In this document: positions 5,906-60,630 of the stretch, piece after piece
Layout: each line of letters starts with the position of its first letter
How positions within the stretch are numbered: the first letter of the stretch is position 1
Assembly (NCBI GenBank): GCA_024137785.1
Contig: JAHRHZ010000063.1
Coordinates: forward strand, 18,414,923-18,478,922
DNA length: 64,000 nucleotides
Source: Ginglymostoma cirratum
Lineage: Eukaryota
Reading direction: 5' to 3'
Notes under the pieces: generated by a model
What the model saw: the letters and a program-made list of their open reading frames with translations, nothing else
The model's database searches: none
Told to the model about the DNA's origin: nothing
Made by a program: the position numbers and the translations under genes

Positions 5906-6103
5906 TATAAAAATCAAAAGAACTGCGGATGCCGAAAATCAGGAACAAAACCAGAAGTTGCTGGAAAAGCTCTGCAGGTCTGGCAGCATCTGTGAAGAGA
6001 AATCAGAATTAATGTTTCGGGTCTGGACCTGAAATGTTAACTCTGATTTTTCTTCGCAGATGCTGCCAGACCTGCTGAGCTTTTAGAGCAATTTCTGTTT
6101 TTG
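5906..6103. mobile_element. Family-B (Penelope-terminus-like) inverted dimer in the putative RAG1 3' UTR
   Basis: Inverted arms of gttgctggaaaagct...gcagcatctgtgaag; 10-bp TSD ATCTCAATAT (5896-5905, 6104-6113). Confidence 0.75.
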
Positions 6104-8032
6104 ATCTCAATATAATAGACACATGACATATGATAAAGTGATAAAATTAAATGCATATCTATATCCAACATCTTTTCTATCAATCAATAATACGAGCAGA
6201 TCTCCTCTAAGGTTGCTTACACACTAAAATATAACATCTAAATTATGACAATGGACTGTCAAACTGTGACTAGTATGACAAGTCATGCGTGAATGATGAA
6301 AGAAATAAAATTAATGTTTTATAAAAACTGCTCATTTTGGGGTCCAAACTCAGCAGTCCCTAAAGCAATAAAAAAATTAGTCCTCAGGCCTCATCTGAAT
6401 ATTGACAATAAACAGTCAGTATTAGTCATATCCATATGTAACTGACATGATGAGAGACATCAAGGGCATGATACTTGTATTGGCAGTGATCCTCCAGTAA
6501 ATACCAGGAAAACAACTGGATCAGGCTACAGGGAGGGGAATGGCCTCCTATAGAAGTAGGATGCATTCTGCTGAATTCACTAGATGTCTTTTTAAAAACA
6601 AAATTTTAACTGCGTATCTTCGGTTGGATTATACACTGCCTGTGAAAAAGTCTTGCATGAAGCAGAGATTAACCATTAATTTTGCAAACAGATCCTTTAT
6701 CAGACTTTAGGTCCATATTTTACACAAGTAGGAATCCTAAAAGAATGTCCTGTGCCACACAAAGTTAGCAGTGGCACCAGTGCCTGAAAAATGCATACTT
6801 TATGCCTGATTTACACCATAATAACTAGTACAATGCAGCAACTTCTCATTGTCTGCTATGTAGTTCACACTCCCGCAAAGTGTAACACTTGCTTCAAATA
6901 AAACTTTCCAAACGTGTTGTGAATGCTTCCATTATTGCAGAGTAGAATGTCTAACCCATGGGAGATCTGCTAGTGTTGGACATTGAGAAAGTTTTAGAAG
7001 GTGTGCTAGGGGTCATAAAAGTCGCTGATGCAAATTCTCATGGCATTGTAAATTCTTTATGAGAAGAAAACATGTATGAAGAGAAAACAAATTCACAATT
7101 CCCAACGTACAGAGAAAGATCCTCTAGCTAAAAACACAACTGAAGATGTTCTAACGAATAGTTGATCTGTTTAAGGACAATTAACTTCAAATTGACTATG
7201 GATGGTCCAGCAATTACACCACAGTTTAGTAGGTATTCATAGCTATTCTATTCCACTGACTATGGTGAGTTACTCGTACTTGCCTTACAAGGTGCAGGAT
7301 CACACTGTAGCCCTTATAACTCAGTCAATTTCAGGCCCAGTCTAATTAGCACCTCTCCAGTAAACCAGATCAGATGAATTGATGGTGTGTGAGAGCAGTA
7401 ACTTTTTCAAAACCTCTATTAAGGAACAAGAATGCTGTAAAGTAGCACAGTACTCATTCTCTATTTTCTAAACTAACTTTCAAAATAATTGTAAGTTTAA
7501 TAACAGACACAACTAAATTATTTGCCGCAACAAATCAGTAAATAGCTGGATAAGAATGTAGAAAAACACAGCAGTCATTGAACAGAGCCAATGGGAACTG
7601 ATGATCATCGCCATTTCCTCTCCAACAATAAATCTGCCGTTTTTAATTTTGAAAACTGAATTCTGTATTCAGAAAAAAACCCCATTCCTTATCCTGAATA
7701 ACAGCATGTTGGCTAACATCTTGCCCATTTTTCCTTCACATCTAAGCACTAGTAACCAACATTACTGCTTTCTGTGAACAGCTCTTAGGTTTCAAATATC
7801 AGAAACAGTCACTCACTTGTGGCTTCAGCTGTCACATAGATTTATCAGTGAGACTGTCTAACACTGCATCCACCACAACTTTTCCATAATACTGCTAGAG
7901 CTTTTCCCACCAATGCCAATATTGCATTCAAGGCTTGGCCATGGTAAGCCTAACTGTCCACATTACATAGACTGTTCACAGTCTGCTGTGGGTTAAAGAT
8001 ACTGAGAACCAACTTCAGCACCAATAATTCAG

Positions 8033-11000
8033 CTAAAAATCAAGGGAATTATTCTGAAGTATTGTATCTTCTTCACTGATCAGCTCAGGTGGTACAGCAT
8101 CACACTTTACATTCTTTAACGTGTTGGGTACATCCATGAACCTTTGTAAATATTTTGAAGTGTACAGCCAGTGATGTTTCAAAATGTCTTCCAATTCATA
8201 ACTTTTGGACTGCCTTGCATTCATTTTCCTGAAACGACGAAAAAGTTTGTTGCCTGATTCATTGCCTTCACTCGCCCACGCGCCTATGGAGCCATCCCTT
8301 TCAATGATCTCGGGGACGTGAGCCAGAGTCTTGTGCAGGTAGTTAGTGATCTTCCCTTCATATCTGTGCTTAAACTCCGTACGAAGCAGTTCTGCGAATC
8401 TTTGGGAATTGCAGCTGTACTGACAAAGAAGCTCAGGGCATTCCCTGGTTGGAAACGTGGAACGCCACACTGGTTTCATCTGAAGATAAAGGTGCATGAG
8501 CTCCTTGAGGATTTCCCGCCTTCGTTCGGATGGAATTAGCTCACAGACAGCCTCGACTGTCTCTTTGGTCATTAGCTTTCGCGCAAAATTCCCGTTCAAC
8601 CTCATGACAGGCTTTAGGTTCATCTTCATTCTCAGGTGCTTGTCAAGCATCGCTTGCCACCGTTTCCTCTCTTCCTTGGATGTGCTGGGATTTTTGTACA
8701 GCTCCCCGATCTCATCCTGGAAAAGTCTGTAGAATTCCGTGGCGTTCCCAATATCACAGTGCAAGGCATCGATGGACGGCTGGGTTTCAATGAACGGCTT
8801 CGCTGAAACCCCCTTAACCCGGCCACGCAACTCATCAGCGGTTTCGCGGTACGGGTTTGAGCGCCAAATTTCGTAGCGCTCCAAGTTCTCCTGGTGGCTT
8901 CTCGTTATGGAATGAAGAACCAAGTTCTGGGAAGCCTCGTTTCGCGTGGCATCGCACAACGTGCAGACGTACATGGAGCCCGAGGCTTCAAGACCCTCCA
9001 TTTCCCGAACGAGCTTCTCATCGTATCCCGTGCCCCTAAAGATGAACTGGAAGGATCTATGCAAGTCCCCAATCTCAAGAATCAAATCGCTGCTCTTCAT
9101 AGCTTCTCGCTCAGCGATGACTGGGCCCAGGATCGCGGTCAACGTTTCGTGGTCGGATTCGTCCGCCAACATCAGGGAAAGCGGTCGGCAGCACAACTCA
9201 GAATTGGGCTTCAGCTCTTCAAAAATGACCACTTTCTCGTCGTTCTCATTCATCATACTTATACTCATGATCGTAAAGGAAAACCTCACTGCCTTTTCTG
9301 GAACGGGTGGGCCACAACCGTGTTTCTCACTGACATCGCCCATTCCATCGCAAGACTCCTTGATCACGACAGTAAACGGTCCACTCACACACTCGTCTAC
9401 GTTATGATGTTTCAAACCTTCCAGAATATCGTCTTCGAGCTCCTTCACGGCCGAAGCAAGGGCCACATCATACCTGAACCGTCTAGAAATGGTTTCCATT
9501 GGGTAATCATCTACACATTGTGTCCAGCCACTCAGTCCATCTATAATTCCCACTTCAGTGTTTGTTGAGACATTTGCCAGAGGGGGCTGCCATTCAAATG
9601 AATAATAACCTGGCAACAGTATTTTTTCTGCATTTCGAAGTGCATGCAGCGGCTGGAAGATCTGCTTCCCAGTTGTTGCTTTGACTGTCCTATACATTTT
9701 ATGATACTGACTACAACTCAGAAATGTGTTAACTCTAATGGCAAGGCAGACTGCTGGTCTCAGTTCGGATCCTTTCCCCTGCATTACAGCTTCCAGCTCA
9801 TCTGCTTGCCTGTGCTCATTTCCAGCTCTGAGTGCCAGAAGTAACAGAGTCAGACAAACGGACTTTACATCGCCATCTTCCTCTTTGTCTGCAAAAGCCT
9901 TCACCTGAAGTTTCAGGTTTCGCAGACGATGTTTTTGAGCTCTTCGGGTTAGAGAAAGCAAATGTAGTCTTGGACGGCCCCCCTTGTTGACTGCTGAGTA
10001 AGCATGCTTCATTCTCGTTTCTTTGTGGTTTTGGGCATGATTCGAATATTCACCGAGTCTCACCTCCATTTCACAGTCTGTCACTGGACACTTTAGCACA
10101 AGTGAATTGAGAACATTTATGAACGACTTAACAGGGCTTAAGAACTCTTTGGGACCACAAGGAAATCTACAAACTGGACAATACTTGCCCAGGACTGCAA
10201 TGCATTTGAGAATACACGTTCTGCAGAAAAGATGCTTGCAAGGTGATTGCACAGGGTCAGCAAGTAAGTGCTCACAAACCTGACAGGATACAGACTGGAT
10301 AAAATTGTTGGGATAATCAAGCACAAGGAGTTTTGAAGTCAGATGGAACTTCTTGCAGTTGATAATCTTTTTAGCCAATAACAGACTTGTGCTATTTACA
10401 TGATCTTTTCTTTTAATGACCCTTGGTCTGATTAGAGCATCAGTTGCTACTCTGGGTTTCTTTGTGACAGGTGGACTTTGTTTGAGACCTTTTCGTTTGC
10501 GGGCCCCACTCGAAAAGCTGCAAATGCTGCAAAGATTGGAATGTGGTTTCCATTCAATGATTGTACTGATCGGAAAGAATGCATCTTCATTCGTTGTATT
10601 GTTAATTGCCTGAATCACAATACACCAACATTTATAGCAGAAGTGAGTGGGATATCTGGCTTCTGTATCAGTCTTGACATCTATCCTAAATGTGTTACGG
10701 ATGAGTTCTGGCCAAAAACAATTGTCATATCCCATTTTCCTGAGCACCTCTTGGGTGACATCATCAACAGGACCATTAACCAGAAATTTCATATCATAAC
10801 TGTTGGTGTTAAAGGAAACTCCACAAATACGACATAGATTTTGCAATCGTAATATATGCTCTTCCAAAGATTTCGCTTCCATTTGGTTAAAGTCACAGGA
10901 CTTGTTTTTTGACGGGTTGAGTTCTAAAGGCATTTGTTCCAGGGCCTTGTCTTCAAAAGTCTTCTTGTCCAAAGGCAGTGTTTCCAATGACATAGTTCCC

Positions 11001-11179
11001 ACTGGTTTGGTGTGTGGCAATGAGGAATGCTGAAGTAGGCCATGAACTGGTGCAACCACCTCTGTCTCATAAAGCTTTTCCATTGAAACCATGACTTCCT
11101 TCTGGGTATTTTTGAAAGGCCTGGTTTCTGCATAAAGAAAGTCATCAGGTAACAGTTGCAGAGGCATCTTCACTTCCAT
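8033..11179 (-). CDS. RAG1: V(D)J recombination-activating protein 1, single coding exon, ~1048 aa from ATG at 11179 (the ORF track starts at a GTG that is the first exon codon)
   Basis: N-terminal CRICG/CYKC zinc ligands, C3HC4 RING (CQVCEH...CKHLFCRTC...CPVC), nonamer-binding GGRPR, catalytic motifs [16 protein letters not shown] and [10 protein letters not shown], zinc ligands CTLCD and HKTLAH. Polypyrimidine tract plus AG acceptor at 11193-11192, 12 nt before the ATG. Confidence 0.98.
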
Positions 11180-12264
11180 AACCACCTGCACCTGACAGAA
11201 ATAAAGAAAAATGATTCTTGATTAAAATAGGATTAGAGTTCAACACCCTCAGAAGCAAAACAGCTTGATGTTCAATGCTAAATCACAGCACTCACATTTT
11301 AATTATGTATTATTCATAAAGCTGCATTTTACAGTGTTAGGGCTGTATAACAATTGAGTTTCTGATCCAGTTCAATAAAAGACCATTGTATCTAATATCA
11401 GGGGATTAATATTAATCTAAGTGAGTGGGAACTACAGAATGGGGAAAGCTGCTCATTTGAATGTACTTAGGCAGGTGTAAGAACGGCTATCAGCTTCTAT
11501 TCCCATTGGGTAGGTTAGCTTAAAGTTGCACCTTTGATGATGAAAAACATATCCTTAGCCAAGAAAGAAATACCTTCGAAAACTACTACCGTGTGATTTT
11601 TATTTTATTCATTTAAGACTTCCACTACAGATTGTATAGGCAGAGTGAAAATGCAACTTAGAAAAACCATTGTTCAACCAGACATGAAGGTTATCTTTAA
11701 GCTTCATCATGCCTGAGTAAACAGGACAACAGCTGAACAATTGGCACTTAGGTTTTCACTCTCATAACTCAAGGACTTTTAAAAAATTGCTAAACTGCAG
11801 CTTGCCTGACAACCTGCCTCTATAGACACCTTCCTCTGCTGCCTTCTCTTCACAACTTTATCACCTGTCTTTGTATATATCTGTTTGTTAGTGTGTTCTA
11901 TCATTATTTTTCTCAGTTTTATTAGGTAATAACTCCACTCTCTTCTACTCAAGAAAACCCTGGAATTGACTTTCCTTCAATTTTAATTTGGTCAATTAAA
12001 TTTATTTAAAGTGTGACTTAGCCACGTGCTTAAAAAAACAATAAGAATATTTACAGCAAGGGAGTTCAAAGAGGGAGGCTAATCACCCCTCCTTATCCAA
12101 CCATAAAAATGCGTAGAAATACATAAAAGTGACAACAAGATAGCATACCTAACCAATCTGCACACAACTAAATAGTTTCAATCAATGTCCTCAGCTTACA
12201 GTACAAAAAAGTCTTGCCCGAAAGTAATCACTTTATCTCTGTTGCTTTATATTTGCAGTCGATG

Positions 12265-14102: not shown

Positions 14103-14449
14103 ATCAGTTCAGTTTTGCAATGTATTGCAATGATTCTCAATTCAGTTATCTATTTACAGCAAATCCCATTTAAACAAAAAATATCCATCTCTACTGAGCA
14201 AATAAACGTGAATAAGTTCAAACTTAATGTTCTTTCTGCATTCATCGTTTCTCCTGATCTAGTTCTGCAATTGCTATAAATGTGTTTTCAAATTGGTCTC
14301 TCTTTTAATTTTCATGGCAAAAGCTACGCAGCACAACAAGATTTGATCTAGATTGGTTAAAAAAAATGAGAAAAATACAGGCGGTTGAAGATACTTTGAA
14401 CATTCCATTAATTCTAAAGAATATGGGGAGGAATTAAGTTCCATAACCT

Positions 14450-15660
14450 TCAGCAGAGAAGTAGTATTAAACAAAGTAATGGGGCTAAAGACAGATAAGT
14501 TCCCTGGTCCTGATGGCTTGTATCATTGGAACCTAAAAGAAGTAGCTGAAGAGATAGTGGATGCATTGTTTGTAATTTTCCAAAACTCATTGGATTTTGG
14601 AGAAATACCAGAGGACTGGAAAACTACCAATCTATTCAAAAAGGGAGGGAGGCACAATGTGGGTACATGTAGGCCGATTAGCCTAACATCCATTGTTGGG
14701 AAAGTATTGGAATCAATTATTAAAGAAGGAATAATTAAAGAAGTAATAGCAGAACATTTGGACAATTATAATCGAATCAAGAAGAGTCAGTTCTGAGGAA
14801 GGGTCACTGGACCTAAAATGTTAACTCTGTCTTTTTCTTCACAGATGCTGCCAGACCTGCTGAGCTTTTCCAGCAACTTTGTTTTTGTTCAAGAAGAGTC
14901 TTCATGAAAGAGTAATTGTGTCTAATTACAGTTATTTGAGGAAGTCTCAACCAGAGTGGATAAAGGAAAACCAGGAGATGTGCTGTATTTGGAATTCTGG
15001 AAGGTGTTCAAAAAGGTACCTCACTAAAAGTTTTGTCATAAGTTAAGAACCCACAGTGTTGGAAGTCATATATTGACATGGATAGAGAATGGCTATTGGC
15101 AATAAATAGCAAGTGGGGATAAGGGATTCTTTTTCGGGTCGGCAACCTTTGACCTGTAGGGTTCCACAGGGATCAGTGCTGGAACCGTAACTACTTACAT
15201 TATTTATTAATGACTGGGAGGGAGGAAGTGGATGTACTGCAGCCAAACTTGCAGATGACACAAAAAATCAATGGAAAAGTTGTGAAAGGGATAAAAATAG
15301 TTTACAGAGAGATAACGTAGGTCAAGCAAGTGGGCAAGGAGTTGGCAAGTGGAGTATAAAGTGGGAAAATGTTAAGTTGTTCATTTTGGAAAGGAGAATT
15401 TTTTAAAAAAGCTTATTATTTACAAGGAGAAAAGCTGCAGGAAGTAGCAACACAACGGGACTTGGGGGTACTTGTACATGAAACATAGAAAGCTAGCATA
15501 CTGGTGCAGTAGGTAATCAGAAAGGCTAATGGAATGTTAGCCCTTATTTCAGGTGGGTTGGAGAATAACAGTAAGGAAGTCTCACTGTAACTGTACATAG
15601 TGCCGTTGAGACCACATCTGCAGTACTGTGAGCAGTTTTGGTCCCATTGTTTAGAGGAAG
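14450..15660 (+). mobile_element. CR1 LINE RT fragment
   Basis: PGPDG...PEDWK...RPISLTSIVGKVLESII; decayed QGSVL and ADDTK. Confidence 0.85.
14789..14888 (+). mobile_element. Family-B short element inserted in a CR1 fragment
   Basis: 12-bp TSD TCAAGAAGAGTC (14777-14788, 14889-14900); CTGAGGA-AGGGTCACTGGACC core with GAAAC decayed. Confidence 0.8.
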
Positions 15661-15664
15661 TTTT

Positions 15665-16290
15665 CATTGTGGTTGGTTTGCTCGCCGAGCTGGTTTGTTA
15701 GTTCACAGACTTTTCATTACCTTGCTGGGTAACATCATCAGTGCAGCCTCCGATGAAGCGCTGCTGTGTTTTCCCGCCTGGTATTTAAACTCTGGGGTCC
15801 GTTGGAGTTGATTACCTCATTAGCGGTTTTTTTTCACAGTATATATAGGGTTAATTCTACGTGTTTATAGATGGCCTTCTTGGTGGAGAACCAGGCCTAT
15901 AGAAATTCCCGTGCTCATCTCTGTTTGGCCTGTCCTAAGATCCTGATGTTGTCCCAGTCGAACTGGTGGTTCTCTTTATCCGTGTGAATGGAGATAAGTG
16001 AGTATTGGTCGTGTCTTTTTGTTGCTAGTTGGTGTTCATGTATTCTTGTGGCTAGTTTCCTGTCTGTCTAATGTAATGTTTGTCACAGTCCTTGCATGAG
16101 AAAGAACAAGACCCAAGTGACACAATCTCCTCAGACAACACGCTGAAACTACTGGACCTATGCCTTACAACCCACATTATCTTTAAAGGCCAAATTTAAT
16201 GAACAAATATATAATTTGTAAACAAAGAATACTTGAACACCAACTAGCAACAAAAAGACACAACCAATACTCACTCATCTCCATTCACAA
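15665..16290 (-). mobile_element. Second Penelope-like lineage: decayed GIY-YIG fragment, terminal hammerhead-like motif and inverted RT scrap
   Basis: - strand reads CKDCDKHYI..QTDRKLATRIHEHQLATKRHD...FDWDNIRILGQ; CTGATGA TGTTACC..GGTAAT GAAA AGTC at 15708-15741; + strand LKLLDLCLTTH at ~16145. Confidence 0.75.
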
Positions 16291-16752
16291 ACGTTTAACT
16301 GAAACTAACAAAATTTGTTAGTGCATTTCACTTCGCACTGATGCTATATTTTCTGTATAAATGCAGTGAGCAGAACCAGATTCACCTGAAACCACAGTGA
16401 AGCAGATTTTCCATCAGGCAGGTTCAATAAATTTTCTTCAACCTCAATTCAGCCCTTCGTTCTTCATTTACACTTCTGTCACACATTCATTAATGTTTTC
16501 TTTGACCTCACACTTTTTGCCAGAGATTCAGACTTTTCAACTTTGAAAATATTTTCATTTCTGTCTTCCCATTCCAAAACATCATTGCTTTCTTCAGGAG
16601 ATAGTAGAAGATCTTGAGCAACTTCCCACAGATACTGACTTTGAAAACTTTAGAGAGAAAGAAGGAATAAGAATCTTAATGAATAGAATCAAAAACAAAG
16701 TTGCTGGAAAAGCTCAGCAGGTCTGGCAGCATCTGTGAAGGCAAAAAACAGA

Positions 16753-16788
16753 GTTAACGTTTCGGGTCTGGTCACCCTTCCTCAGAAC
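16753..16788 (-). ncRNA. Minimal type I hammerhead ribozyme-like motif within a family-B element (16689-16790)
   Basis: GTT-CTGAGGA-A-GGGT gaccag ACCC-GAAA-CGTT-AAC: stem I GTT/AAC, stem II GGGT/ACCC, intact core. Confidence 0.6.
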
Positions 16789-19567
16789 AGTTCATGTTCC
16801 TCCGACATAATCATGCTTGTTCAGAATGTTTGTTCCAGTCCCTTTGTGAGGTTAACTGATTCCTCTATCCAGGTTGACTTTGTGGCCTCACAATACTGCA
16901 AAATTGGGGAGGGGAGTGGGGGATTGGGGCTGGGGAGGGGTGGGGGAGGGAGGCAGGCATACCTGAACCCAAGACTGTCCTCAACCTGCCTTCGACAAAA
17001 GCACACTTTTCAGCTGGCTAAGATAACACAGTATGGAGCTGGAAGAACACAGCAGGCCAGGGAGCATCAGAGGAGCAGGGAAAACATTTCAGGTCAGGAC
17101 TGTATCTCTTTCCAGCAGGCTGACTGCTTGTCGATCCAAATCGGGAAGCGAGAACAAATTAGTTTCCTGACATGCAGAGGACTTTAAGATGTAGTTCCAC
17201 CACCATCACCATGGTTTGATGCCAGCTAATATAGAATAGATCAATCTGATGCAACATTTCTGGTCTGTATATCACATATCACATCATTTGCACCCCGAAT
17301 TATTGAAAGAACCAAGCTTTTTGTCATCTCCTGATTGTCAATTTTATATTTTTGGAACATGTGGATGGAAGGAGCAGTGGGGACATCCAGAGGAGACAGG
17401 GAGAGGCAATGCAGGGGGAGATCAGCACCCGGTGGAATTGCATCATGCCCAGAGAACTGGAGGGAGGTGGGAGGGGCAAGAGAGCCATCGGGCGAACGAA
17501 AGACTGGAGACAGAGGGGGAAAGGGGCTCCCAGCTCCCAGGCCCGATTTGTTGCCCTCCCCAAAATTCCTCTGCAAAAAAAAAAAGTTGAAAACACTCAG
17601 CAGTGAGCACTCCACAAAAAAACGTGATTTAGAATACCTTCAATTACGAAGTCTCACATTAAAATAATCGAGATAGGCAATCTCAAACATTTGGTTTAAA
17701 AAAAACTTTGTGATTGTAAAATGTTTGAAACTTTGACTAACTGATCCCTGTTTCCCCCTAGATTCTACCTGACCAATTTCAGTTTCTGTCTTCACAGGAA
17801 TAATGTGTTTTTGATGGAGTTGGGAGGAAGATGAAGTGCAGTACAAAAGGTTCAGAGATAGATTGAAAAGGTTAGACCAGTCACATATCAAGTTTTACTG
17901 ACATAAATATTTAATAATAACCTAGTTCTCTATCATATCTATTTAATTTCCTGTCACTACAGATCAGAAAGGTTACATTAGTTTTCTGCAGTTCTGCACA
18001 TTCCTATCGTCTGTTAATCCACATAGAACAGTACAATAGCAAATCACTCCAGATGCTGGAATTCTGGACTATAAATGGAAAATGTTGAAAATACTCAGCA
18101 GGTCAAGGAGCAATTGTGGAGGAAAGCTGTTAATGGTTCAGGTTGATCAGTGGAAAATCCCAGCAACGTTGTTTATAATTATCAATGCCTTCCTTGCCTA
18201 GAGATGATGCAACTCTGACTCTTCACTTCTAAATGGAAATTTCTATTTCTAGGGATAGGCTGTCTCCCAATTATCACCAGTTCTCATGGCTAACATGATT
18301 ACATTTCCTGCCACCAAGCTTTCTATAAGGACTGTATTCCCATCTCTGCCACATCCATCTGATGATACTGCTTCCACATCACTGCTTCTGATGTCATTAA
18401 TTTTCTTCAGCCAAGGATTTCTTTCTGCCCTGGTTTACAGGTCCTTGAACCTAGCCATTCCACTTTCAATGGGTACCCTGGTCCCTCCCAGGAACATAAT
18501 TCCCCCTTTTCCTCACCAACCCACACTATTTCTACTGCTTTCAGCATGATGCCGTTACCAAACAAATAGAGTGGACCATTTGGCCCTTATCACAAAGCCT
18601 TATTCCCTCTTTCTCCCCACAGCCCTTGATGCCTTTAAAAAATCTAAAAATGTCTTTCTTGAATATATTTGGTGACCTGACTTCCACAGCCTTATGTAGT
18701 AGAAAATCCCACTGGTTCACTGGCCTGTGTAAAGAATTTCTTTCTCAATCTTATATGGTCTACTCCATACCCTGAGACTTTCTCCTGGACTCCCCTGTCA
18801 AGGGGAAACATCCTCTCTACACTTAGTCTGCTCAGCCTTGTTAGAATTTTAGATCCTCTCTCATCATTCTAAACTCTAGAGAATACTGGTCCAGCCAAAC
18901 TAATCTCTCCTCACTGAATAGTCCTACCATCTCTGGTATCAAACTAGTGAACATCTTCTGCACTCTCTCAGTGATAAATATATTCTCTCAAGTAGGGAGA
19001 CCATAATTGCATGTAATACTCCATGTGTGGTCTCACTAAGGCCCTGTATAACTGCAATAAGATTTCCCTAGTTGTGAACTCAAATCCTTTTGCAATGAAG
19101 GCCAATATACCATTTGCCTTTTGAAAATTTAAAGTCCCCCAACTAATCTGGTGGGATTTGAACCTGGACATAAACCTGGCATTCTGGATTAGGAGTCTAG
19201 TGATATTAACACTACACCACCATCCTCCACATCTTCCTTCTCTCTTCCCTTTCGTGAAGAAACCATTCTCCTCCAAACATCCTGGTCTACTCTTCCATCT
19301 TTGCCAACATTCACCCCTGTCCACAGACCATTTCTCATCTAAGCGTACCAGAGCCACCTTATCTTTCACCCACTTCTAACTCAGCCCAAGAATCCTCTTT
19401 AAGGTTAATATGTGTTTTTAATGACTATTCCAGAGTTTTGGGTAGTGATTATTCCTAGCATTAGGTTCACATTAAGATCATGTCTCAATTTTCATATCAA
19501 ATCTTCTCACACCATTTTAAAAAACACCTTCTCAAAATCTTTAATCATTCATTGTTCTGTCATCTAA

Positions 19568-22054: not shown

Positions 22055-22487
22055 TTAGAACTGTCAAATTTTAAGTAAAGAGCAAAATATTACTTGTATT
22101 TTGTCTATTATAAATGTGTGTGTTAAATTTGAAACAAATTCTTAAAAACAATTGAGCCAAGACAGAAGCGTATTAGGCAACTTATAAAATACTCAATTAC
22201 ATTTAAACACCCTACTTTTCATGTGATTACAGGCTATAAGCACAGCATAATAGTTTTAAATCACATTATTGATCATTGCATAATTAATTTTGTGAATTAT
22301 AATACAGTACGCAATGATCAGTGTTTGCCTACTCCATGAAAGTCCAATGTTCTTGATTTCAGCAAAAAGATCATAAAACATGAATGGAGAAATGGTGATC
22401 TAACTGATCAAACCTGCTCCCTCCACAGACAACACGATTCAATCTTAAACTCCACCACAGTTATCTGCAAACCTCAAACGAAATATC

Positions 22488-22716
22488 AAAACAAAAACAG
22501 AGGTTGCTGGAAAAGCTTAGCAGGTCTGGCAGCATCTGTGAAGAAAAATCAGAGTTAACATTTCAGGTCCGGTAACCCTTCCTCAGAACAGGAAGGGTCA
22601 CTGGACCCATAATGTTAACTCTGATTTTTCCTCAGCTGCTGCCAGACCTGCTGAGCTTTTCCAGCAACCTCTGTTTTTGTTCCTGATTTACAGCATCTGC
22701 AGTTCTTTCGGTTTTT
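22488..22716. mobile_element. Family-B inverted dimer in NDUFS3 intron 5
   Basis: Two ~100-bp inverted copies meeting at the hammerhead-like ends. Confidence 0.75.
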
Positions 22717-23203
22717 AAGTATTGAAACATTCAGCCATCTCCACAATTCAACAGTGGCCTGATTGAATATACAGATTATTTGCCCACCCCCACAACAATC
22801 ATCCTAGTTGCTACATAAAGTTCACTGAGCATCAGAAATAGCAAATTGACATTCTGGCTAGAATTCTGTCAGAGTTCCAAGTATAATGTAACATACATCT
22901 TTGCCTTTCAAATGTTTCCTGGCAACAGTGCAGACTTTACCTTCATCTCAAATCCTACTCACAACCAGACAATGCCTACTCTTAAAATTGAGTTAATTTA
23001 CAGAAGATAAATGTCTTCTGCTAAGAATGTGTAAGATGGTGTAATTTCTTGTTCCCTGTCCATCTCACTCTGTCTGCAATGTTGAATACACCCTTACCCC
23101 TGATTCAATTATTTTCTGTTCTCTGACTCAGTCTTGATTTGCTTAGAGATTGACTAGTAATAAAAGTCTTCTCATAACATTTCATCCAATTTATTCAACT
23201 CAC

Positions 23204-24079: not shown

Positions 24080-26870
24080 TAGAACATAGGAATAGGATTA
24101 GGTCACTTAGCCCATCAAGCCTGCTCATTGTACCATTTAGTACAATCATGGCTGCTTAAATGGTTCAGTGTCTTTTACCCACACTGTCCTCATAACCCTT
24201 TATACCATTGATAATGAAAAATTCAACAACCTCTACTTTAACCATACTCAAAGATTGATCATCCTCAAAGAATCGGGGTAAAGAATTTCAAAGATTCACT
24301 ACATCTGAGTAAAACAAAAATTCTCAACAGTTCTAAATGGTATCTCCCTTATTTTTAAAATTGTATCCCCGGGTTCCAGACTGTCCAACCAGGGGAAACA
24401 TCTTATCTGCATCTACCTTGTATTCAGTATTCTGGAAGTTTCAATGAGATCATCTCTCATTCTTCAAAACTCAAGAGAGAACAAGGCACATTTGCCCAAT
24501 CTCTCATCATAGAACAGTCTCACCATCTCAGAAATAAGTTTGGTGAATCTTCACTTTAATCCCTCTCTGGCAATAACTTCTTTCCGGAGATAAGGAGATC
24601 AAAATTGCACAGTTCTTCTGGCAGTCTAACTAAGCTCCTGTATAATTGAAGCACAACTTGACTACTCCTGTACTCAAATCCTCGTGCAATGAAGGCTACT
24701 GTTTCATTACCCATTCACCTGCATTTTAGCCTTCAGTGACTTAATGGCAAGGACAACCAAGTCCCTTTGCACAACTATACTTTCCAATCTCACCATTTAA
24801 GAAATATTCTGTATATCTGTACCTCCAAAGTGGATAACCTCATTTTTCCATACTATATTCCATCTGCCTTATTCTTAACCAATCACTAAACATGTCCAAA
24901 TCCTCCTTAAAAAAAACCCTAAAGAATTGAGAGTGCTGGAAATCAAAAGTGAAATCAGAAATTGTGGAAAACTTAGGTCAGGCAGCATTTGTGAACAGAA
25001 AGCAGAGTTGATGTTTCAGATCCAGCGACCTTTCTGACTCACAGAAGCATCACTGGACCCAAAACATTAACTCTTCTTTCTCTCCACAAATGTTTCTCAA
25101 AAGTGTTGTCCAGCTTCCTCACAACACACATTTCTGCTTAGCTTTCTTTCATCTGCAAACCTTAAAATATTACATTTGGTCCCCACATCCAAATCATTGA
25201 GCAGCTGGGGCCCCAAGTTCTGATTCGTGCACACTTCACTAGTCACACTCCGCCTACATGAGAATAACCTCTACATTACTAATCTGTTTTGCCTTTGTTG
25301 GTCAATCCTTAATCCATGCCAATACATTACCTCCAATCCAATCTGATATAAGTTTGTTAGCCAATCTCCTGTGGGCAACCTTATCAAAATCCAAATATAC
25401 TACACCCATCAACTCCCCTTCAATTTTGTTAGTAACATCCTGAAAAACTAGACTATCAGGTCCCAGGGACTTCTCAATTTTCCAACCCACTAATTTCTCT
25501 AATATTACCTTCTTACTAATTGTAATTTTCTACAGCTCCTCATGGTCCTTACTCACTTGGATCTCTGATTCTGGGAGATTTCTTACACCTTCGTCAGTGA
25601 AAACAGGCAAAAAGTATAATTTAGGTTCTCTGCCGTTTCTTTATTCCCCTTTATAGATTCTCCTGACTTTGATTTTCATAGACCCACATTTGTCTTAATC
25701 AAATGTCTCCTTTTTACAAACCTATAGAAACTTGTACAGTTTGTCTTTTATGTAGTTTGCTAGGTTATATTCCTATTTGATTTTTCCTTTCCTTATCAGT
25801 CTTCTTGGTCTGTCTTTGCTGTATTGCAAAATCTTCCCAATCCTCAGATTTATTACTATTATTCACCACTTTATAAGCATTTTCTTTTAATCTTACATAA
25901 TCTTTAACATTCTTTGTCAGCCATCGTTCACTGACCTATTTTGTGTCTTGAGCATAGGAAGGATATCAAGGCATAGCCAGGAGTAGATAAAGTGAAAAAG
26001 GGAGACTTATCGTAGATACTGAAGCCCTACAGGAGTACAGAATGTGCACAGGGAAACTTAAAGGAAATTAGGAGAACAAGTACGGGACATGAAAGAACAG
26101 TGGCAGGTAAAACAAAGGCAAGTCCTAAATTTTTTTTTAGTACATTAAGGGTAAAAGGATAACTGGGTAAAGCCTATTAAGGACCACAGTGCTAACTTGC
26201 ATGGAGCTGGAGGGTGTAGGAGGCAAACTAAATCAATACTGTGTCAGTGTTCACAAGTGAGCGGGACAAAATCAGGAAGGAGGACTGTTATCTACTTAAA
26301 GTAAGCAGCATTGACAGGGAGATTCTGAGTGATCTGGCAGATTTAAAATTGGGTAAACCTAAATGCCAGATGAAACATATCCCAGGCTGTGTGAGGCAAA
26401 TCAATAGCAGGAACACTAGTAATAATTTTAAATTCCTCTCTGGACACAGCAGCAGTGCTGTAGGATTGGAAGACAGCTAATGTACAATTAATCAAGAAAG
26501 GAGCAAGAGGTGGAACATGATTGAGGAGCGTAGACAGGAAGGAACTTTTCCACTTGCTGGAGGACCAATCACAAGGAGGCATTCATTTAATGTAAGGGGC
26601 AGAAGATTTAGAGGGAATAAGAGGAAATTATTTTTCAGATGGTGATGGGCAACTGGAACTCACCACCTTTAAGCGTAGTAAAGGCAGAAACCCTCATAAC
26701 ATTTAAATAAGTATTTAGATGCACACTAATGATGACAAAGCATAAAAGGTTAAGGGCCAAGTGCTGGGAAATGGAATTAGAATAGTTAGGTGGATATTTT
26801 TGACTGGCATAGACTTGATGGGGCGAATGGCATTATTTTTAATGCTTTAATACTATAAACCTCTACACAG
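24080..26870. mobile_element. Cluster of decayed CR1 fragments (- then +) in NDUFS3 intron 4
   Basis: GVVYLDFDKVAHRRL...WIKD on the - strand; CR1 3' motifs. Confidence 0.65.
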
Positions 26871-41788: not shown

Positions 41789-41898
41789 AGAGATAAAAGG
41801 ATTTTCTGATGAAGGGTTTAGGCCCGAAACGTCAAGTTTTCCTGCTCCTATGATGCTGCTTGACCTGCTGTGTTCATCCAGCCCCATGCTTGTTATCT
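41789..41898 (+). mobile_element. Short Penelope terminal-repeat insertion (family A) in a KBTBD4 intron
   Basis: 16-bp TSD CAGAAGTTCAGGTACT (41773-41788, 41899-41914); begins with a short inverted copy of the element end. Confidence 0.85.
41803..41836 (+). ncRNA. Minimal type I hammerhead ribozyme-like motif (family A), sense to KBTBD4 pre-mRNA
   Basis: CTGATGA (41806-41812) A GGGTTTAGGCCC GAAA CGTC. Confidence 0.6.
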
Positions 41899-44572: not shown

Positions 44573-45125
44573 TAACAAGCATGGGGCTGGATGAACACAG
44601 CAGGTCAAGCAGCATCNNNNNNNNNNNNNNNNNNNNNNNNNNNNNNNNNNNNNNNNNNNNNNNNNNNNNNNNNNNNNNNNNNNNNNNNNNNNNNNNNNNN
44701 NNNNNNNNNNNNNNNNNNNNNNNNNNNNNNNNNNNNNNNNNNNNNNNNNNNNNNNNNNNNNNNNNNNNNNNNNNNNNNNNNNNNNNNNNNNNNNNNNNNN
44801 NNNNNNNNNNNNNNNNNNNNNNNNNNNNNNNNNNNNNNNNNNNNNNNNNNNNNNNNNNNNNNNNNNNNNNNNNNNNNNNNNNNNNNNNNNNNNNNNNNNN
44901 NNNNNNNNNNNNNNNNNNNNNNNNNNNNNNNNNNNNNNNNNNNNNNNNNNNNNNNNNNNNNNNNNNNNNNNNNNNNNNNNNNNNNNNNNNNNNNNNNNNN
45001 NNNNNNNNNNNNNNNNCAGCAGGTCAAGCAGCTCCTATGATGCTGCTTGACCTGCTGTGTTCATCCAGCCCCATGCTTGTTATCTCGGATTCTCCAGCAT
45101 CTGCAGTACCTTTTATCTCTGATAC
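44573..45125. mobile_element. Penelope family-A inverted pair spanning a 400-N gap
   Basis: Inverted copies either side of gap 44617-45016; 14-bp TSD AGTTTCCATCTGGA (44559-44572, 45126-45139). Confidence 0.8.
44617..45016. other. Assembly gap (400 N)
   Basis: N run. Confidence 1.
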
Positions 45126-46214
45126 AGTTTCCATCTGGAACCATTTTAGGAGCTGCATCATCACAACTTTGGGATGGGCTAGAAATTCAATCTTACAATG
45201 TTGGCTGTGTCTTGAGTACCAATTTTAAAAATCGCAGTTTAACGTTTGAAAGCAAAATCATTGAATGTTATTTTTCCACTCAGACTATATCTATTTTTAT
45301 GAAGTTCACTTATCAAAAGCTTATTAAAGATCATGATCTGAGTAAACTGTGGACCAGTGAAGCAGGATTTAATATACTTACAGTAAAACCGAGGCAGAAG
45401 CCCCCTTAACCATCTATTACGGTACAGATTCATTGAGTGGGGTGTATTGTTTGGTAAGTGGTGATACCAGTATAAGCTGCCAAAGTAGGAGTTTATCTGA
45501 TGGTCCTCTAAAAGTTAAGGTTTAATCAGAATCAAATGTAATTTGAAACTTAGTGATTTAACGAGAGGCCATTTTTGTTAGGCATCACTGCAATAATCAC
45601 CAAATGCATTGGTCTGATTGTTCCAAGTTTAATATCTAATCCTTCCTTTATTTTCCTGGCAAGACCAGAAAAGATGATCTTGCCACAGTTTGAAAATGCA
45701 AATAAATTTAGCCAGTATTCATCTTTTCTAGGATTAAGTTTTAATTTTGTAATACATTTTAATTACTAACCAAAACTGGTCTTAGCAAAAATTGTAGGTA
45801 ATTCACAATAGATTTTCAAACAATACATTATCGCTTGATATTTTAAAGTGGATTGTACAACTGTTTTGCTGTGAGAGTTATACAATGCAATGCAACACAA
45901 CACAGCACAGGAACAGGCCCTTCGACCCACCAAATTACTGGTTTGCCAGTATGTATTCTCCGCAGAAACTGATCGAAAGAAGACCTTTTTGATTTACTCT
46001 AAAGTCAGACCAAAAGTACTTTTTGTGATAACAGGGAAATGATTCAACAAGTCATAGTGAGCACTTAAGTCATCCTAGCAAAGGAAGATAGTCTTTTGGA
46101 ATCCTCCCATTAACTAAATACCTGTGCAGCTTGTATTAATTTTAAGATTATTATCTAAAGATTAAACTGTACCATTGTTGTTTATCAGGTTTGGAATTTT
46201 TTTGTCTCATACAG

Positions 46215-47072
46215 GAAATTGGCGAAATTGTTCATATTTATCTGATTGGAAAAGAAGACACTCGGACTCACTCACTTGCAGTTTCTTTACATTGTGATGA
46301 TGACGCCATCAGTGTCAGTGGACAAAATAGATTGCGTCAGCAGATTACGGCTGCGTGCAAGCATGGCAGTGACTTATATGTTGTGGGTGGCCCCATTCCA
46401 CGCCGAATGTGGAAGTGTAATATGGAGACAATGGACTGGGAACAGTGTGCATCACTGCCAAGAGATCGGCTTCAGCACACACTGGTATCTGTGCCAAGTG
46501 AGGATGCCATTTATTCACTCGGTGGAAAAACTCTACAGGATACGCTATCCAGCGCTGTCATTTATTATGTGGTCCGTGATAATGTATGGATTGAAACCAA
46601 TCAGCTGGACACTGCAGTATCTTGCGCTGCTGGTGTTAACCTGAATGGAACTATTTATCTTCTGGGTGGGGAGGAGAATGACCTGGATTTCTTTACCAAA
46701 CCATCACGTCTCATCCAATGTTTTGACACGCACTCCAGAACGTGCCAATTAAAATCATACCTTCTCCCCTTTGCAGGCCGTATGCATGCTGCTATTCACA
46801 AGGACCTGATTTTTATTGTAGCTGAGGGGGATTCTTTGGTTTGTTATAATCCTTTGCTCGACAGCTTCACCAGACTGCGTTTCCCAGAGGTATGGAGTCG
46901 TGTGCCTTCCCTCTGGAAGATTGCAAGTTGCAATGGATGTATCTATGTTTTCAGAGATAAGTGCAAAAAGGGTGATGCCAATACATTAAAACTGAACCCA
47001 GCCACATCTGTGGTGTCAGTAATTAGTGGAATTGAGATACTGCTGACGAATTGGCAATTTGTTTTGGCATGA
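46215..47072 (+). CDS. KBTBD4: KBTBD4 last exon (kelch propeller)
   Basis: EIG...YVVGGPIPRRMWKC...LLTNWQFVLA*; acceptor acag at 46214; AATAAA at 47606. Confidence 0.96.
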   Translation, partial: EIGEIVHIYLIGKEDTRTHSLAVSLHCDDDAISVSGQNRLRQQITAACKHGSDLYVVGGPIPRRMWKCNMETMDWEQCASLPRDRLQHTLVSVPSEDAIYSLGGKTLQDTLSSAVIYYVVRDNVWIETNQLDTAVSCAAGVNLNGTIYLLGGEENDLDFFTKPSRLIQCFDTHSRTCQLKSYLLPFAGRMHAAIHKDLIFIVAEGDSLVCYNPLLDSFTRLRFPEVWSRVPSLWKIASCNGCIYVFRDKCKKGDANTLKLNPATSVVSVISGIEILLTNWQFVLA

Positions 47073-55157: not shown

Positions 55158-55255
55158 CATTTCTGAAGGAGGGTCTAGGCCCGAAATGTCAGCCTCCCTG
55201 CTCCTCTGATGCTGCTTGGCCTGCTGTGTTCATCCAGCTCTACACCTTGTTATCC
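55158..55255 (+). mobile_element. Penelope family-A short insertion (degenerate hammerhead core)
   Basis: 12-bp TSD AGGATACAAGTA (55146-55157, 55256-55267). Confidence 0.8.
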
Positions 55256-56184
55256 AGGATACAAGTAGTTTTATTAATTGGGACCTATAACAACAATGTA
55301 AGGATGTTTTTTTTTACAGTTAATCACCAGGATTGTTGCACTCAGGGAGGCAAGATCAAGGTCAATTTGTTCAGGTGGGAGGGTGATTGGCAGCTAAGCA
55401 GCAGCAGGCCGATAAGTTAAAGTCAGGAAAGAGAATGGAATTACTACAAAATTACTACAAAAACACTAAGTAAACAGGAAAGGAGGAGTGGGGGTAAAGA
55501 TCAATCTAATAATGTTCTTTTGATTCACTGTAAATTTAACAAACATTTACTGCAAATCAGTTATCTATAACATGTACCTGTTAGTACAGCTTTATCTTCC
55601 AAATTAAAAAGATATTTAATGATAAAACTCTAAAACAATCTTGTGAATATGCAGTTTTAGGAAACAAAATTTCAGAAAGTTTAGGAAGGAAAAACTAAAT
55701 TGCTTCTTTTTATAGGTTCACACAATCCGCATTCTGCCTTTAACTAATGTTATCTCAATCAGGATTGAGCAACTGAATTTCTCAATATTAAGTACATTAA
55801 GATGTACTTATTATGTTGTATCTCACTGAAATTTTATTCAAATATACTAAAAGGTATAATTATATTTCAAGCATTTACTGTGTTTAAAGAGGTCAGGCAG
55901 CATCTGTGAAGAGGCGAAGAGTTAATGTTCTGATTAAAGAGTATCAAGAGAGTCAGAGTTGGAATTTTTACAGCATGGAAAAAGGCCCTTTGGTCCTGCA
56001 TGCTGAGGCTGGTCTTCAAACATTCATCTGTTCTAATCTCATTTTCCAGCACTTGGCCCTCAGCCTTATGACGTTTCAAGTGTTCATCCAAAAGGTTCTT
56101 CATGTTTCAGAGGTTTTAGCCTTTATTAACTTTTTTAGGCAGTATGTTCCAAATCACTACAACCCTCTGGGTAAGAAGATATTT

Positions 56185-59100
56185 AGAACAAAGAACAAAG
56201 AAAATTACAGCACAGAAACAGGCCCTTTGGCCCACCAAACCTGCAGCGATTCAGATCCTCTACCTAAACCTATGGCCTATTTTCCAAGGATCTGTATCCC
56301 TCTGCTCCCCGCCCATTCATGTATCTGTCTAGATACATCTTAAATGATGCTATCATGCCCGCCTCTACCACCTCTGCTGGCAACGCATTCCAGGCACCCA
56401 CCACCCTCTGCGTAAAGAACTTTTCCCCTCTCACACTGAAATCGTGACTCCTAGTAATTGAGCCCCCCACTCTGGGAAAAAGCTTCTTGCTATCCACCCT
56501 GTCTATACCTCTCATGATTTTGTAGACCTCAATCAGGTCCCCCCTCAACCTCCGTCTTTCTAATGTAAATAATCCTAATCTACTCAACCTCTTTTCATAG
56601 CTAGCGCCCTCCATACCAGGCAACATCCTGGTGAACCTCCTCTGCACCCTCTCCAAAGCATCCACGTCCTTTTGGTAATGTGGCGACCAGAACTGGACGC
56701 AGTATTCCAAATGTGGTCGAACCAAAGTCCTACACAACTGCAACATGACCTGCCAACTCTTGTACTCAATACCCTGTAGGATGAATGAAAGCATGCCGTG
56801 TGCCTTCTTGACCACTCTATCGACCTGCGTTGCCACCTTCAGGGTACAATAGACCTAAACACCGAGATCTCTCTGTGCATCAATCTTCCCCAGGGCTTTT
56901 CCATTCACTGTATCGTTCGCTTTTGAATTGGATCTTCCAAAATGCATCACCTCGCATTTGCCTAGATTGAACTCCATCTGCCATTTCTCCAACCAACTCT
57001 CCAATCTATCTATATTCTGCTGCATTCTCCGACAGTTCCCTTCACTATCTGCTACTCTACCAATCTTCGTGTCATCTGCAAACTTGCTGATCAGACCATT
57101 TATACCTTCCTCCAGATCATTTATATATATCACAAGCAACAGTGGTCCCAGCACGAATCCCTGTGGAACACCACTGGTCACAGTTCTCCATTTTGAGAAA
57201 CTCCCTTCCACTCCAACTCTCTGTATCCTGTTGCCCAGCCAGTTCTCTATCCATCCAGCTAGTACACCCTAGACCCCATGCGACTTCACTTTCTCCATCA
57301 GCCTACCATGGGGAACCTTATCAAATACCTGACTGAAGTCCATGTATATGACATCTACAGCCCTTTGCTCATCTATCAACTTTGTCACTTCCTCAAAAGA
57401 ATTCTATCAAGTTGGTAAGACATGACCTTCCCTGCACAAAACCATGCTGCTGCCTATCACTAATATGCCCATTTTCTTCCAAATGTAAATAGATCCTATC
57501 CCTCAGTATCTTCTCCAGCAGCTTCCCCACTACTGACGTCAGGCTCACCAGTCTATAATTACCTGGATTATCCTCGTTACCCTTCTTAAACAAGGGGACA
57601 ACATTAGCAATTCTCCAGTCCTCTGGGACCTCACCCGTGCTCAAGGATGCTGCAAAGATATCTGTTAAGGCCCCAGCTATTTTCTCTCTCGCTTCCCTCA
57701 GCAACCTGGGATAGATCCCATCCAGACCTGGGGACTTGTCCACCCTGATGCCTTTTTAGAATACCCAACACTTTCCCCCTTCCCCTGCCCCCCACCTCCT
57801 TATGCCGGCTTGACCTAGAGTAATCAAATATCTATCCCTAACCTCAACATCCGTAATGTCCCTCTCCTCGGTGAATACTGACGCAAAGTACTCATTAAGA
57901 ATCTCACTCATTTTCTCTGACTCCTCACATAACTTCCCTCCTTTGTCCTTGAGTGGGCCAACCCTTTCTCTAGTTACCCTCTTGCTCCTTACGTACGAAT
58001 AAAAGGCTTTGGGATTTTCCTTAACCCTGTTTGCTAAAGATATTTCATGACCCCTTTTAGCCCTCTTAATTCCTCATTTCAGATTGGTTCTACTTTCCCG
58101 ATATTCTTCCAAAGCTTCGTCTATTTTCAGTCGCCTAGATCTTATGTATGCTTCCTTTTTCCTCTTTGCTAGTCTCACAATTTCACTTGTCATCCATGGT
58201 TCCCTAATCTTGCCCTTTCTACCCCTCATTTTCATAGGGACATGTCTGTCCTGCACTCTAATCAACCTCTCTTTAAAAGCCTCCTACATATCAAATGTGG
58301 ATTTACCCTCAAACAGCAGCTCCCGATCCACATTCCCCAGCTCCTGCCAAATTTTGCTATCGTTGGCCTTCCCTCAATTTAGCACTCTTCCTTTAGGACC
58401 ACTCTCGTCTTTGTCCATGAGTATTCTAAAACTTACAGAATTGTGATCACTATTCCCAAAGTAATCCCCTACTGAAACTTCAACCACCTGGCCAGGCTCA
58501 TTCCCCAATGACAGGTCCAGTACGGCCCCTTCCTGAGTTGGGCCATTTACGTACTGTTCTATAAAACCCTCCTGGATGCTCCTTACAAATTCTGCTCCAT
58601 CTAAACCCCTAACACTAAGTGAATCCCAGTCAATGTTGGGAAAATTAAAATCTCCCATCATCATCACCCTATTGCTCCTACATCTTTGCATGGTCTGTCT
58701 ACTTATTTGTACCTCTCTCACGTTTGCTGTTGGGAGGTCTTTAGTACAGCCCCAACATTGTTACTGCACCCTTCCTATTTCTGAGCTCTGCCCATATTGC
58801 CTCACTGCTCAAGTCCTCCATAGTGCCCTCCTTCAGCACAGCTGTGATATCCTCTTTGACCAGTAATGCAACTGCTCCACCCCTTTTACCTCCCTCTCTA
58901 TTCCGCCTGAAGCTTCTATATCCTGGGATATTAAATCGCCAATCTTGCCCTTCCCTCAACCAAGTCTCCGTGATAGCCATAACATCATACTCCCAGGTAC
59001 TAATCCAAGCCCCAAGTTCATCTGCCTTATCTACTACACTTCTCGCATTAAAACAAATGCGCCTCAGACCACCTGTCCCTTTGCTTTCATTATCTGGTCT

Positions 59101-60630
59101 CTGCCTACTCTTCCCCTTAGTCACACTGACTTCATTATCTAGTTCCTTACAGGCTTTAGTTACTACCTCCTTACTGTCCACTAATCTCCTCATTTGGTTC
59201 CCATCCCCCTGCCACATTAGTTTAAACCATCCCCAACAGCATTAGCAAAAGCACCCCCTAGGACATTGGTTCCAGTCCTGCCCAGGTGTAGACCGTCCAA
59301 TTTGTAATAGTCCCACCTCCCTCAGAACCGGTCCCAATGTCCCAAAAATCTGAACCCCTCCCTCCTGCACCATCTCTCAAGCCACTCATTTATCCTGCCT
59401 ATTCTTTCATTTCTACTCTGACTAGCACATGGCACTGGTAGCAATCTTGAGATTACTACCTCTGAGGTCCTACTTTTTAACTTGGCTCCTAACTCCCTCA
59501 ATTCTGCCCGCAGGACCTCATCCTGTTTTTTTTAACCTACATCATTGGTGCCTATATGCACCATGACAGCTAGCTGTTCACCCTCCCCCTTCAGAATGTC
59601 CTGCAGTTGATCTGAGACATCCCTGACCCATGCACCTGGGAAACAACATACCATTCGGGAGTCTCGTTTTTGACCACAGAACCGCCTATCTACTCCCCTT
59701 ACAATCGAATCCCCTATGACTATAGCCCTTCCACTCCTTTTCCCGCCTTTCTGTACAGCAGAGCCAGCCATGGTGCCATGAACCTGGCTACTGCTGCCTT
59801 CCCCTGGTGAGCCATCTCCCCCAACAGTATCCAACACAGTATACCTGTTTTGGAGGGAGATGACGGCAGGGGACACCTACACCGCCTTCCTGCTTTTTCT
59901 CTGCCTTTTGGTCACCCATTTCCTTTCTCCCTCAGCAATCCTAATCTGCGGTGTAACCAATTTGCTAAACGCACTATCCACGACTTCCTCAGCATCGTGG
60001 ATGCTTCAAATTGAGTCCATCCGCAGCTCCAGAGCCGTCATGTGGTCTAACAAGAGCTGCAACTGGACACACTTCCTGCACATGTAGGAGTCAGGGACAT
60101 CAGCCGGGTCCCTGAGCTCCCGCATTGAGCAAGAGGAGCATAACACGGGTCTGGGATCTCCTGCCATTTTTACTCTTAAACTTAGCTTAGTCCTACTATA
60201 ATATCAAATAATAGATAAACGAAATGAAAAAAGTTTTACCAATCACTCTACTTACCAGAACACGATAAAAAAAAGAAAAGCCTTACCTTATCAACACACC
60301 ACAGAGTCTTTTTTTTGGGTTAGAGAAGGAGGGCGGGTGGGAGACACTACACGTGTAGTGTCTCAGGTTTAGCCACTACCCAAATATATCAGAGATAACA
60401 AGGTGAAGAGCTGGATGAACACAGCAGGCCAAGCAGCATCAGAGGAGTAGGAAGGCTGACGTTTTGGGCCTAGACCCTTCTTCAGAAAAGTAGCCCAAAT
60501 ATATCAGTTCACTCACCTTCCCAGAGCGCAATTCAACCGCTCCCACTCACCTCCACTGCCGAAATGAAGAACCTACCTTCCCGGCAGCCCCCTGGTCCTC
60601 GCTCTCACCGCTCCCGCTGCTGCTGCAAAG
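56185..60630 (-). mobile_element. Near full-length CR1 LINE, frameshifted (ORF1 with SGNH esterase; ORF2 APE-RT), in a PTPMT1 intron
   Basis: ORF1 IVIGDSIVRG...CFPGA...HIGTND; APE CFNARS, TETWL, GDFNFP, SDHN; RT GVPQG.VLGP, KFADDTK; C-terminal ERVQRRFTRM. Confidence 0.93.
60393..60493 (-). mobile_element. Penelope family-A short insertion nested in the CR1 5' region
   Basis: 14-bp TSD CCCAAATATATCAG (60379-60392, 60494-60507); core GAAA mutated to AAAA. Confidence 0.8.

Follow-up and report, generated by a model that had tools for sequence, protein, structure and literature searches.

The short hammerhead-bearing repeats of the shark Ginglymostoma cirratum are, judged from their sequence, the termini (pLTRs) of Penelope-like elements (PLEs) that encode a reverse transcriptase (RT) and a GIY-YIG endonuclease (EN), and these short copies, or stubs, were probably made when the enzyme of an autonomous element reverse-transcribed no more than the 5' part of that element's capped, uncut RNA. 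The window analysed here is a stretch of 64,000 nt from contig JAHRHZ010000063.1 (18,414,923-18,478,922; assembly GCA_024137785.1), and the genome searched for further copies comprises 4.36 Gb.

Self-alignment of the window finds about 17 insertions, 8 of family A, 8 of family B and 1 of family D, in agreement with an earlier sequence-only reading that had recognised a dozen or more short elements of families A and B sharing a hammerhead core; absent from that reading were the GIY-YIG-bearing A copy at 30808-32083 and the third family, D (~15639-16290). Exact target site duplications (TSDs) of 10-16 bp are present at 8 window insertions, where seven or more had been claimed, and one more has an 8-bp TSD; none was found at 6 other window insertions tested, and the chance level for such a TSD is 4 in 2000 random intervals. 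The core pattern CTGA[TG]GA-A-GGG..CCC-GAAA-CG-T[CT] is intact at the three places that had been named, 16760-16785 (-), 33079-33102 (-) and 41806-41829 (+), and the remaining window cores are mostly broken, chiefly at CpG sites. A loose form of this pattern is weak evidence on its own, as it has 15 matches in the window against 8.0 ± 3.1 in shuffles.

In the numbering used below, 0 is the first C of CTGA, and predicted cleavage, which should follow GUC/GUU, falls after +27 in A and +29 in B. The single-armed A insertions are a terminus at the window edge (7-72, +), outside the range of the sequence-only reading, a degraded terminus without a core (17018-17083, -, found by self-alignment), a 98-bp copy with a broken core that starts at -5 (55158-55255, +, 12-bp TSD), a 101-bp copy that starts at -3 and has lost G12 (60393-60493, -, 14-bp TSD), and the 5'-truncated PLE at 30808-32083 (-), which consists of the ORF C-terminus (CX4CxxC linker and GIY-YIG), a 400-N gap and terminus A with its tail, between an 11-bp TSD at 30797/32084. 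Two-armed A insertions lie at 33011-33494, with the intact core 33079-33102 (-), a left arm to +92, a right arm to +130 with tail and a 13-bp TSD, and at 44573-45125 around another 400-N gap, with a left arm to +91, a tailed right arm and a 14-bp TSD. The copy at 41789-41898 (+), with the intact core 41806-41829, opens with an inverted 12-nt stretch from the end of the tail, after which the terminus starts at -4/-3, and has a 16-bp TSD; it is the limit case of a two-armed insertion, its second arm being just that inverted stretch. We note that the 400-N gaps (30874-31273 and 44617-45016) are both inside family A insertions, and that young PLE copies break the assembly.

The B insertions include a two-armed one at 5906-6103 (left arm to +133 with tail, right arm to +97, cores lost at the fold, TSD ATCTCAATAT at 5896/6104) and another at 22487-22718 (left arm to +96, right arm to +132 with tail, core 22561-22586 (-) changed from CG to TG, no TSD found), and an old B-like two-armed insertion was found by self-alignment at 24913-25092. 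Single copies of this family are the 100-bp one at 14789-14888 (+), which starts at A(-4), has a 12-bp TSD and carries a broken core (G12 lost, CG to TG), the one at 16687-16788 (-), which starts at -3, holds the intact core 16760-16785 and has no TSD that was found, an old B-like copy of 72% identity with the 8-bp TSD (18019-18126, -), an old B-like copy with a broken core that starts at -5 (27289-27407, +), and a fragment from self-alignment (55890-55933, -). The family D insertion, whose limits (~15639-16290, -) are approximate, is a 5'-truncated PLE with a broken GIY-YIG C-terminus, a core at 15712-15741 with a mutated palindrome, an inverted piece and no TSD that was found. Its hammerhead has a T bulge and a longer stem II, no CxxC-type match was seen in the fragment, and the family may be Poseidon-like.

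Other sequence in the window includes an intact single-exon RAG1 gene at 8033-11221 (-) with a 1062-aa open frame, and a BTB/BACK exon (40985-41743, +) and a kelch exon (46146-47072, +) that likely form one BTB-kelch gene. The gene evidently tolerates the intact sense-strand core at 41806, immediately behind the BTB exon; RNA depth over the BTB-kelch exons is 1-3, too shallow to show splicing across this core. RT and endonuclease fragments at 14389-14796, 18968-19375, 38859-39449 and 56270-59245 belong to a LINE, presumably CR1-like, and the first of these has the B copy at 14789 at its end. Two open frames overlap at 3160-3813, one of 162 aa (-) and one of 123 aa (+) that includes a hydrophobic stretch.

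The shared core has the form of a minimal type I hammerhead, CUGANGA-N-stem II-GAAA-palindrome-UH, with a stem I and a G10.1-C11.1 pair. Stem I reads ATTT/AAGT, AGTT/AACT, AACAC/GTGTT, GCA/TGC or AGTC/GACT and stem II GGGT/GCCC, GGGTC/GACCC, GGAGT/ACTCC or GTTACC/GGTAAT in the different families, and the palindrome is CG or GC. Both stems thus differ yet stay paired in five families, so the covariation whose absence the sequence-only reading had named among its refuting conditions is present, in a sample of nine copies that is biased because they were hand-picked and found with a descriptor that requires stems. An Rfam scan of the window gave no hammerhead family among 19 matches up to E 10, and the miRNA families among those matches are fold-backs. 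RNA folding does not favour a monomeric hammerhead (P(2.1-1.1) at most 0.03). Across 137 B alignments, CpG positions in the core show 24–40% mutation and the remaining core positions are like the flanks; A replaces G12 in 35% and T replaces the palindromic C in 40%, and selection on inserted cores was rejected. The keeping of the core CpGs across families points to selection on the source elements. Further PLE-like hammerhead families are present at loci L044, L023 and L101, one of them with GC in place of the CG palindrome.

Two features next to the core deserve mention. Between +3 and +170 of family A (loci L087 and L088) a 14-codon uORF begins with the ATG of the core, and its stop overlaps a second uORF, of 40 codons, that ends 2 nt before the main ATG, and predicted cleavage would take off the cap and the first uATG. 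Just behind the B hammerhead, from +28 to +52 (for example at 14820-14846 in the window), TTAAC, a pyrimidine run and CAG/ATG resemble a 3' splice site; introns in PLE 5'UTRs are known.

The parentage of the repeats follows from colinearity. The GIY-YIG ORF runs through a ~300-bp 3'UTR into the hammerhead and terminus A at 18 of 20 loci, the other two reaching N gaps, and the terminus is also found in front of the ORF start; locus L274 reads terminus-ORF-terminus with two internal N gaps. One terminus therefore stands both before and behind the ORF, as in a pLTR. At the family A locus L086 an open frame of 590 aa holds RT and GIY-YIG in one ORF, with YIDD and DKG motifs; GIY-YIG scores 25.7 bits (cut-off 22.6) and RVT_1 has E 1.7e-6 and 28.4 bits, just under its cut-off of 29.6. 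The linker motif CX2-5CxxC is present between RT and EN as CNRRKCYTC at residue 440 of the L086 piece, and by domain order and linker the family A ORF has a layout of the Neptune/Nematis type. The window copy 30808-32083 has a Pfam GIY-YIG match that is below cut-off (E 6.5e-4) and is 95.6% identical to an RT-bearing copy. The nearest named relatives of the element's protein are in whale shark (93%), zebra shark (89%) and bamboo shark (79%), and since many RT copies score identically, family A appears young. Colinearity with the autonomous element's terminus extends to the short copies, which have the same subfamily variants as long ones. Family B shows nested truncations that extend upstream into an endonuclease ~50–60% identical to that of A, and of 24 long B termini 15 are preceded by a match to PLE protein, a few of these matches possibly being neighbours; the B coding sequence found consisted of RT-distal and EN pieces, and no intact B ORF was recovered. 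Together with the hammerhead features, the ORF-terminus colinearity bears out the original suggestion that these are PLE termini with minimal type I hammerheads.

As had also been foreseen, the repeat is genome-wide, with at least 73,045 exact A cores (reversed control 0) and at least 105,450 A and 20,853 B terminal anchors, arms being counted singly (reversed controls 0). A query with the GIY-YIG region (+1 frame) retrieved near-identical copies and gave 114,905 candidates, which is not a copy number. A random genome sample covered 800 kb, of which 507 kb is N.

The 5' ends of the copies share a start. Among copies unselected on their 5' end (from the window, random blocks and anchor loci, with ends beside N dropped), 48 of 73 B and 18 of 71 A copies end within -8 to 0, 0 of 73 and 2 of 71 within -89 to -9, and 4 of 73 and 25 of 71 past -90. 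These 25 A copies run on into the 3'UTR, which indicates that a second template route exists. In 100 A copies inspected by eye among the matches listed, 37 are long, none ends in -25 to -8, 27 end in -7 to -1 and 36 end downstream. Exact A ends number 5,977 at -4, 1,238 at +1 and 1,095 at the cut site +28 (patterns that differ in length and CpG content and are only roughly comparable), and so few at +28 argue that the cut site is not a favoured 5' end. Scattered background ends occur from +1 to +50, and a weak cluster of A starts at +29 to +31 (~5–6 of 71) could be trimmed cleavage products. The sequence-only description of the repeats as truncated insertions thus holds, with the amendment that their 5' ends are mostly non-random and stop at one place. 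Splicing as the source of this fixed start is ruled out, there being no common sequence upstream of it. Short A copies often have ATTTT for ATTT, or the first 7 nt repeated, and long copies among the matches listed do not; these changes are slippage at the template end. The sequences at -4, CCATTTC and TCAGTTC, fit an initiator consensus. Drosophila Penelope has an internal promoter inside its pLTR (PMC2377424).

The base before A(-4) is G in 3,430 of the 5,977 A copies that end exactly there (57%), and among the first 100 matches listed, scored by eye, G precedes 19 ends at +1 and 16 at +28 and stands at position -9 in 19. In B the excess is weaker, 51 of 100 before the start against 32 of 100 at -9 (by eye), a control that is not position-matched. 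About half of 30 inspected extra-G junctions could draw their G from the opposite arm or the 7-nt duplication; after these classes were dropped by eye, G remains in 35 of 77 A (p 2.5e-4 against 19 of 100) and 43 of 92 B junctions (p 0.04). An extra 5' G marks capped templates, and reflects the mRNA cap, in L1 (PMC11702581, PMC9341517), and the comparison makes it fairly likely that the extra G before the A start is a copied mRNA cap. Instead of at a capped end, the 5' ends could have piled up where RT stopped, or where end joining had a hot spot, at the front of a folded (protein-bound) hammerhead in read-through or circular RNA, a reading which fits the match of the stop to the outer edge of stem I in both families, the spread of B starts over several bases (-7 to 0) and the other possible sources of G at many junctions. 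We nevertheless consider this unlikely, because it is hard to see why RT should stall on leaving a 4-bp stem, because copies reaching beyond -8 hardly ever end within the next 80 nt, and because the G excess at -4 is absent at +1 and +28. Our search of freely accessible article text turned up no publication that treats PLE hammerheads of sharks or a capped start at a hammerhead.

The 3' ends are bimodal and ~35 nt apart, at ~+92 and ~+127 in A and ~+95 and ~+132 in B, and in vitro work has assigned the corresponding PLE tail to two internal sites of RT initiation (PMC11167929). One-sided tails of PLEs are known qualitatively (PMC3846280, PMC8557442). In the shark, all 40 of the 40 TSD-flanked head-to-head insertions detected (23 of 23 in A, 17 of 17 in B) have the tail on one arm and not on the other; their TSDs are 8-18 bp, and an inverted 5' copy, a tail at one end and a TSD thus occur together. 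From this strict rule of one short and one tailed arm we infer that each target strand primes at its own site.

Ten of 20 ORF-start loci, picked from 41 ORF-start matches in favour of those with a terminus in front, are composites in which a 5' piece of the ORF, cut at an arbitrary point, joins a terminus starting at -4/-3, and RNA reads include two ORF-piece/terminus joints with a G in between. The simplest reading of these composites is run-off at the RNA end followed by a template jump. A poly(A) RNA run (36,816 reads, unstranded and mostly from passive copies) has no pile of starts or ends, and none of its reads ends at the predicted cut site, in a library dominated by passive copies; no circular-RNA joint was seen among the reads listed from this library, which is of a kind unsuited to circles. 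A second run gave 10 reads. Long copies may owe their seamless junction of 3'UTR and terminus to read-through, a circle or homologous transfer. As a test of circle formation or transfer, linkage of subfamily variants does not break down across the cut site (+4/+44 r2 0.91), an observation that says nothing if both pLTRs of a source have one and the same sequence.

In the mechanism we favour, Pol II would start at the initiator-like A(-4), which would make the hammerhead the first 32 nt of the mRNA and leave a stem I of only 4 bp. The endonuclease would make a 10-18 bp staggered cut in the target, and each target 3'-OH would prime reverse transcription at one internal RNA site, ~+92 or +127 in A and +95 or +132 in B. 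After ~100 or 135 nt the cDNA would reach the capped end and run off, often with a C added opposite the cap; it would then be joined to the target or the other arm, or else switch templates. For the RNAs that get copied we predict a mostly uncut hammerhead, which would be kept by selection on active source elements and not on inserted stubs. The stubs look dead, and the repeat in itself looks ordinary.

Non-LTR retrozymes are, like the stubs, short, non-coding, PLE-related and equipped with a type I hammerhead, but they are tandem 150–450 bp repeats expressed as circular RNA, whereas the stubs lie dispersed, flanked by TSDs, as single or head-to-head units whose limits are the starts of the RNA and of RT and not the cut site (PMC7229834, bioRxiv 10.64898/2026.07.22.740005). 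No tandem unit is present in the window, and 5' ends lie at -8 to 0 with those at +28 at background; by both tests the stubs are not retrozymes. It is accordingly very improbable that they form a self-propagating non-autonomous family, retrozyme- or SINE-like, of short transcription units processed by the hammerhead and mobilised in trans. Such a family would suit the discrete lengths, long TSDs and very high copy number, the present shortness of most B copies (48 of 73) with no intact B ORF recovered, and the occurrence of tandem retrozymes in one chondrichthyan genome (bioRxiv 10.64898/2026.07.22.740005). Against it, the units start before the core, short and long copies carry common variants, and only 2 of 78 tandem repeats at unselected loci carry a core, both at one 403-bp, 1.9-copy locus. 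Since the stubs end at the inferred RT start sites they would also be without the downstream sequence that the anole enzyme requires (PMC11167929). The non-autonomous, retrozyme-like system of the sequence-only reading is not supported, as the copies are dispersed, colinear with an autonomous terminus and begun before a core that decays neutrally. Least probable of all is that long copies simply lost their 5' parts at random, without any special start, a reading that would explain the scattered ends from +1 to +50 but is contradicted for most short copies by the sharp -8 to 0 edge in two families of different sequence and the G enrichment there.

Described EN+ PLEs of the Neptune/Nematis type share with the shark element a single ORF with RT, CX2-5CxxC and C-terminal GIY-YIG, pLTRs with a hammerhead, 5' truncation, an inverted 5' copy, a 30-40 bp tail at one end and a TSD (PMC8557442, PMC3846280). 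Unlike those described, shark copies consist, mostly in B and often in A, of only the 100-135 bp front. The authors of these two papers proposed antisense-template self-priming, or recombination for solo pLTRs, and no description of a fixed start, an extra G or template-jump composites was found in the accessible text of either. The minimal hammerheads of metazoan PLEs and the shark cores alike lack helix III and have a palindromic 15.2/16.2, an extra base between 9 and 10.1, G10.1-C11.1 and a helix I of 3-5 bp; in both cases most are solitary copies from truncated PLEs (PMC4209133). On the extra A, which the sequence-only reading had compared with the CChMVd viroid hammerhead, that paper notes no more than a similar unpaired base in some canonical hammerheads. 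Massive populations of such hammerheads from truncated PLEs are known from it in fishes, coelacanth and Xenopus; the one supplement of it that was searched contains no shark term. The shark has at least 73,045 intact cores of one family against ~4,000–9,000 in coelacanth or Xenopus, counts obtained by different search methods. The cleave-and-circularise model of the same paper is not supported for the short copies of the shark.

The closest parallel in mechanism is PAc, the Poseidon element of Anolis carolinensis, for which internal RT starts, extension on both strands and dispensability of hammerhead cleavage have been seen in vitro (PMC11167929). In PAc and the shark PLE alike, the tail is delimited by a pair of adjacent internal RT start sites, cutting and extension take place on both target strands with uncleaved RNA as substrate (so we read the shark copies), and no RNA ends at the cut site, for the shark in poly(A) reads (PMC11167929). 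The two differ in that PAc, being Poseidon, belongs to another clade, that the main ATG of family A is ~170 nt after the core and that of PAc in stem II, and that PAc in vitro has no strand difference in start site, against one site per strand in 40 of 40 shark insertions (PMC11167929). The shark system is thus an EN+ PLE of known kind that works like PAc.

We put forward, as a possibility of rather low probability, that PLEs copy like a target-anchored retrovirus, in which a strong-stop DNA of ~100-135 nt is made near the capped 5' end and transfer to the 3' pLTR is needed to reach the ORF; stubs would be failed transfers and the pseudo-LTR the product of transfer. If this were true, a cut at +27 by the hammerhead of the downstream pLTR would produce a terminal redundancy of 32 nt, an R region made by a ribozyme. 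The favoured mechanism itself makes testable statements, namely that the template is capped 4 nt before the core, that it is mostly uncut and that the two target strands use different RT start sites. More than 100,000 young copies in one genome are a base-resolution record of insertion intermediates, and they bear on how PLEs form pseudo-LTRs, inverted ends and tails and on the role of the hammerhead (PMC8557442, PMC11167929).
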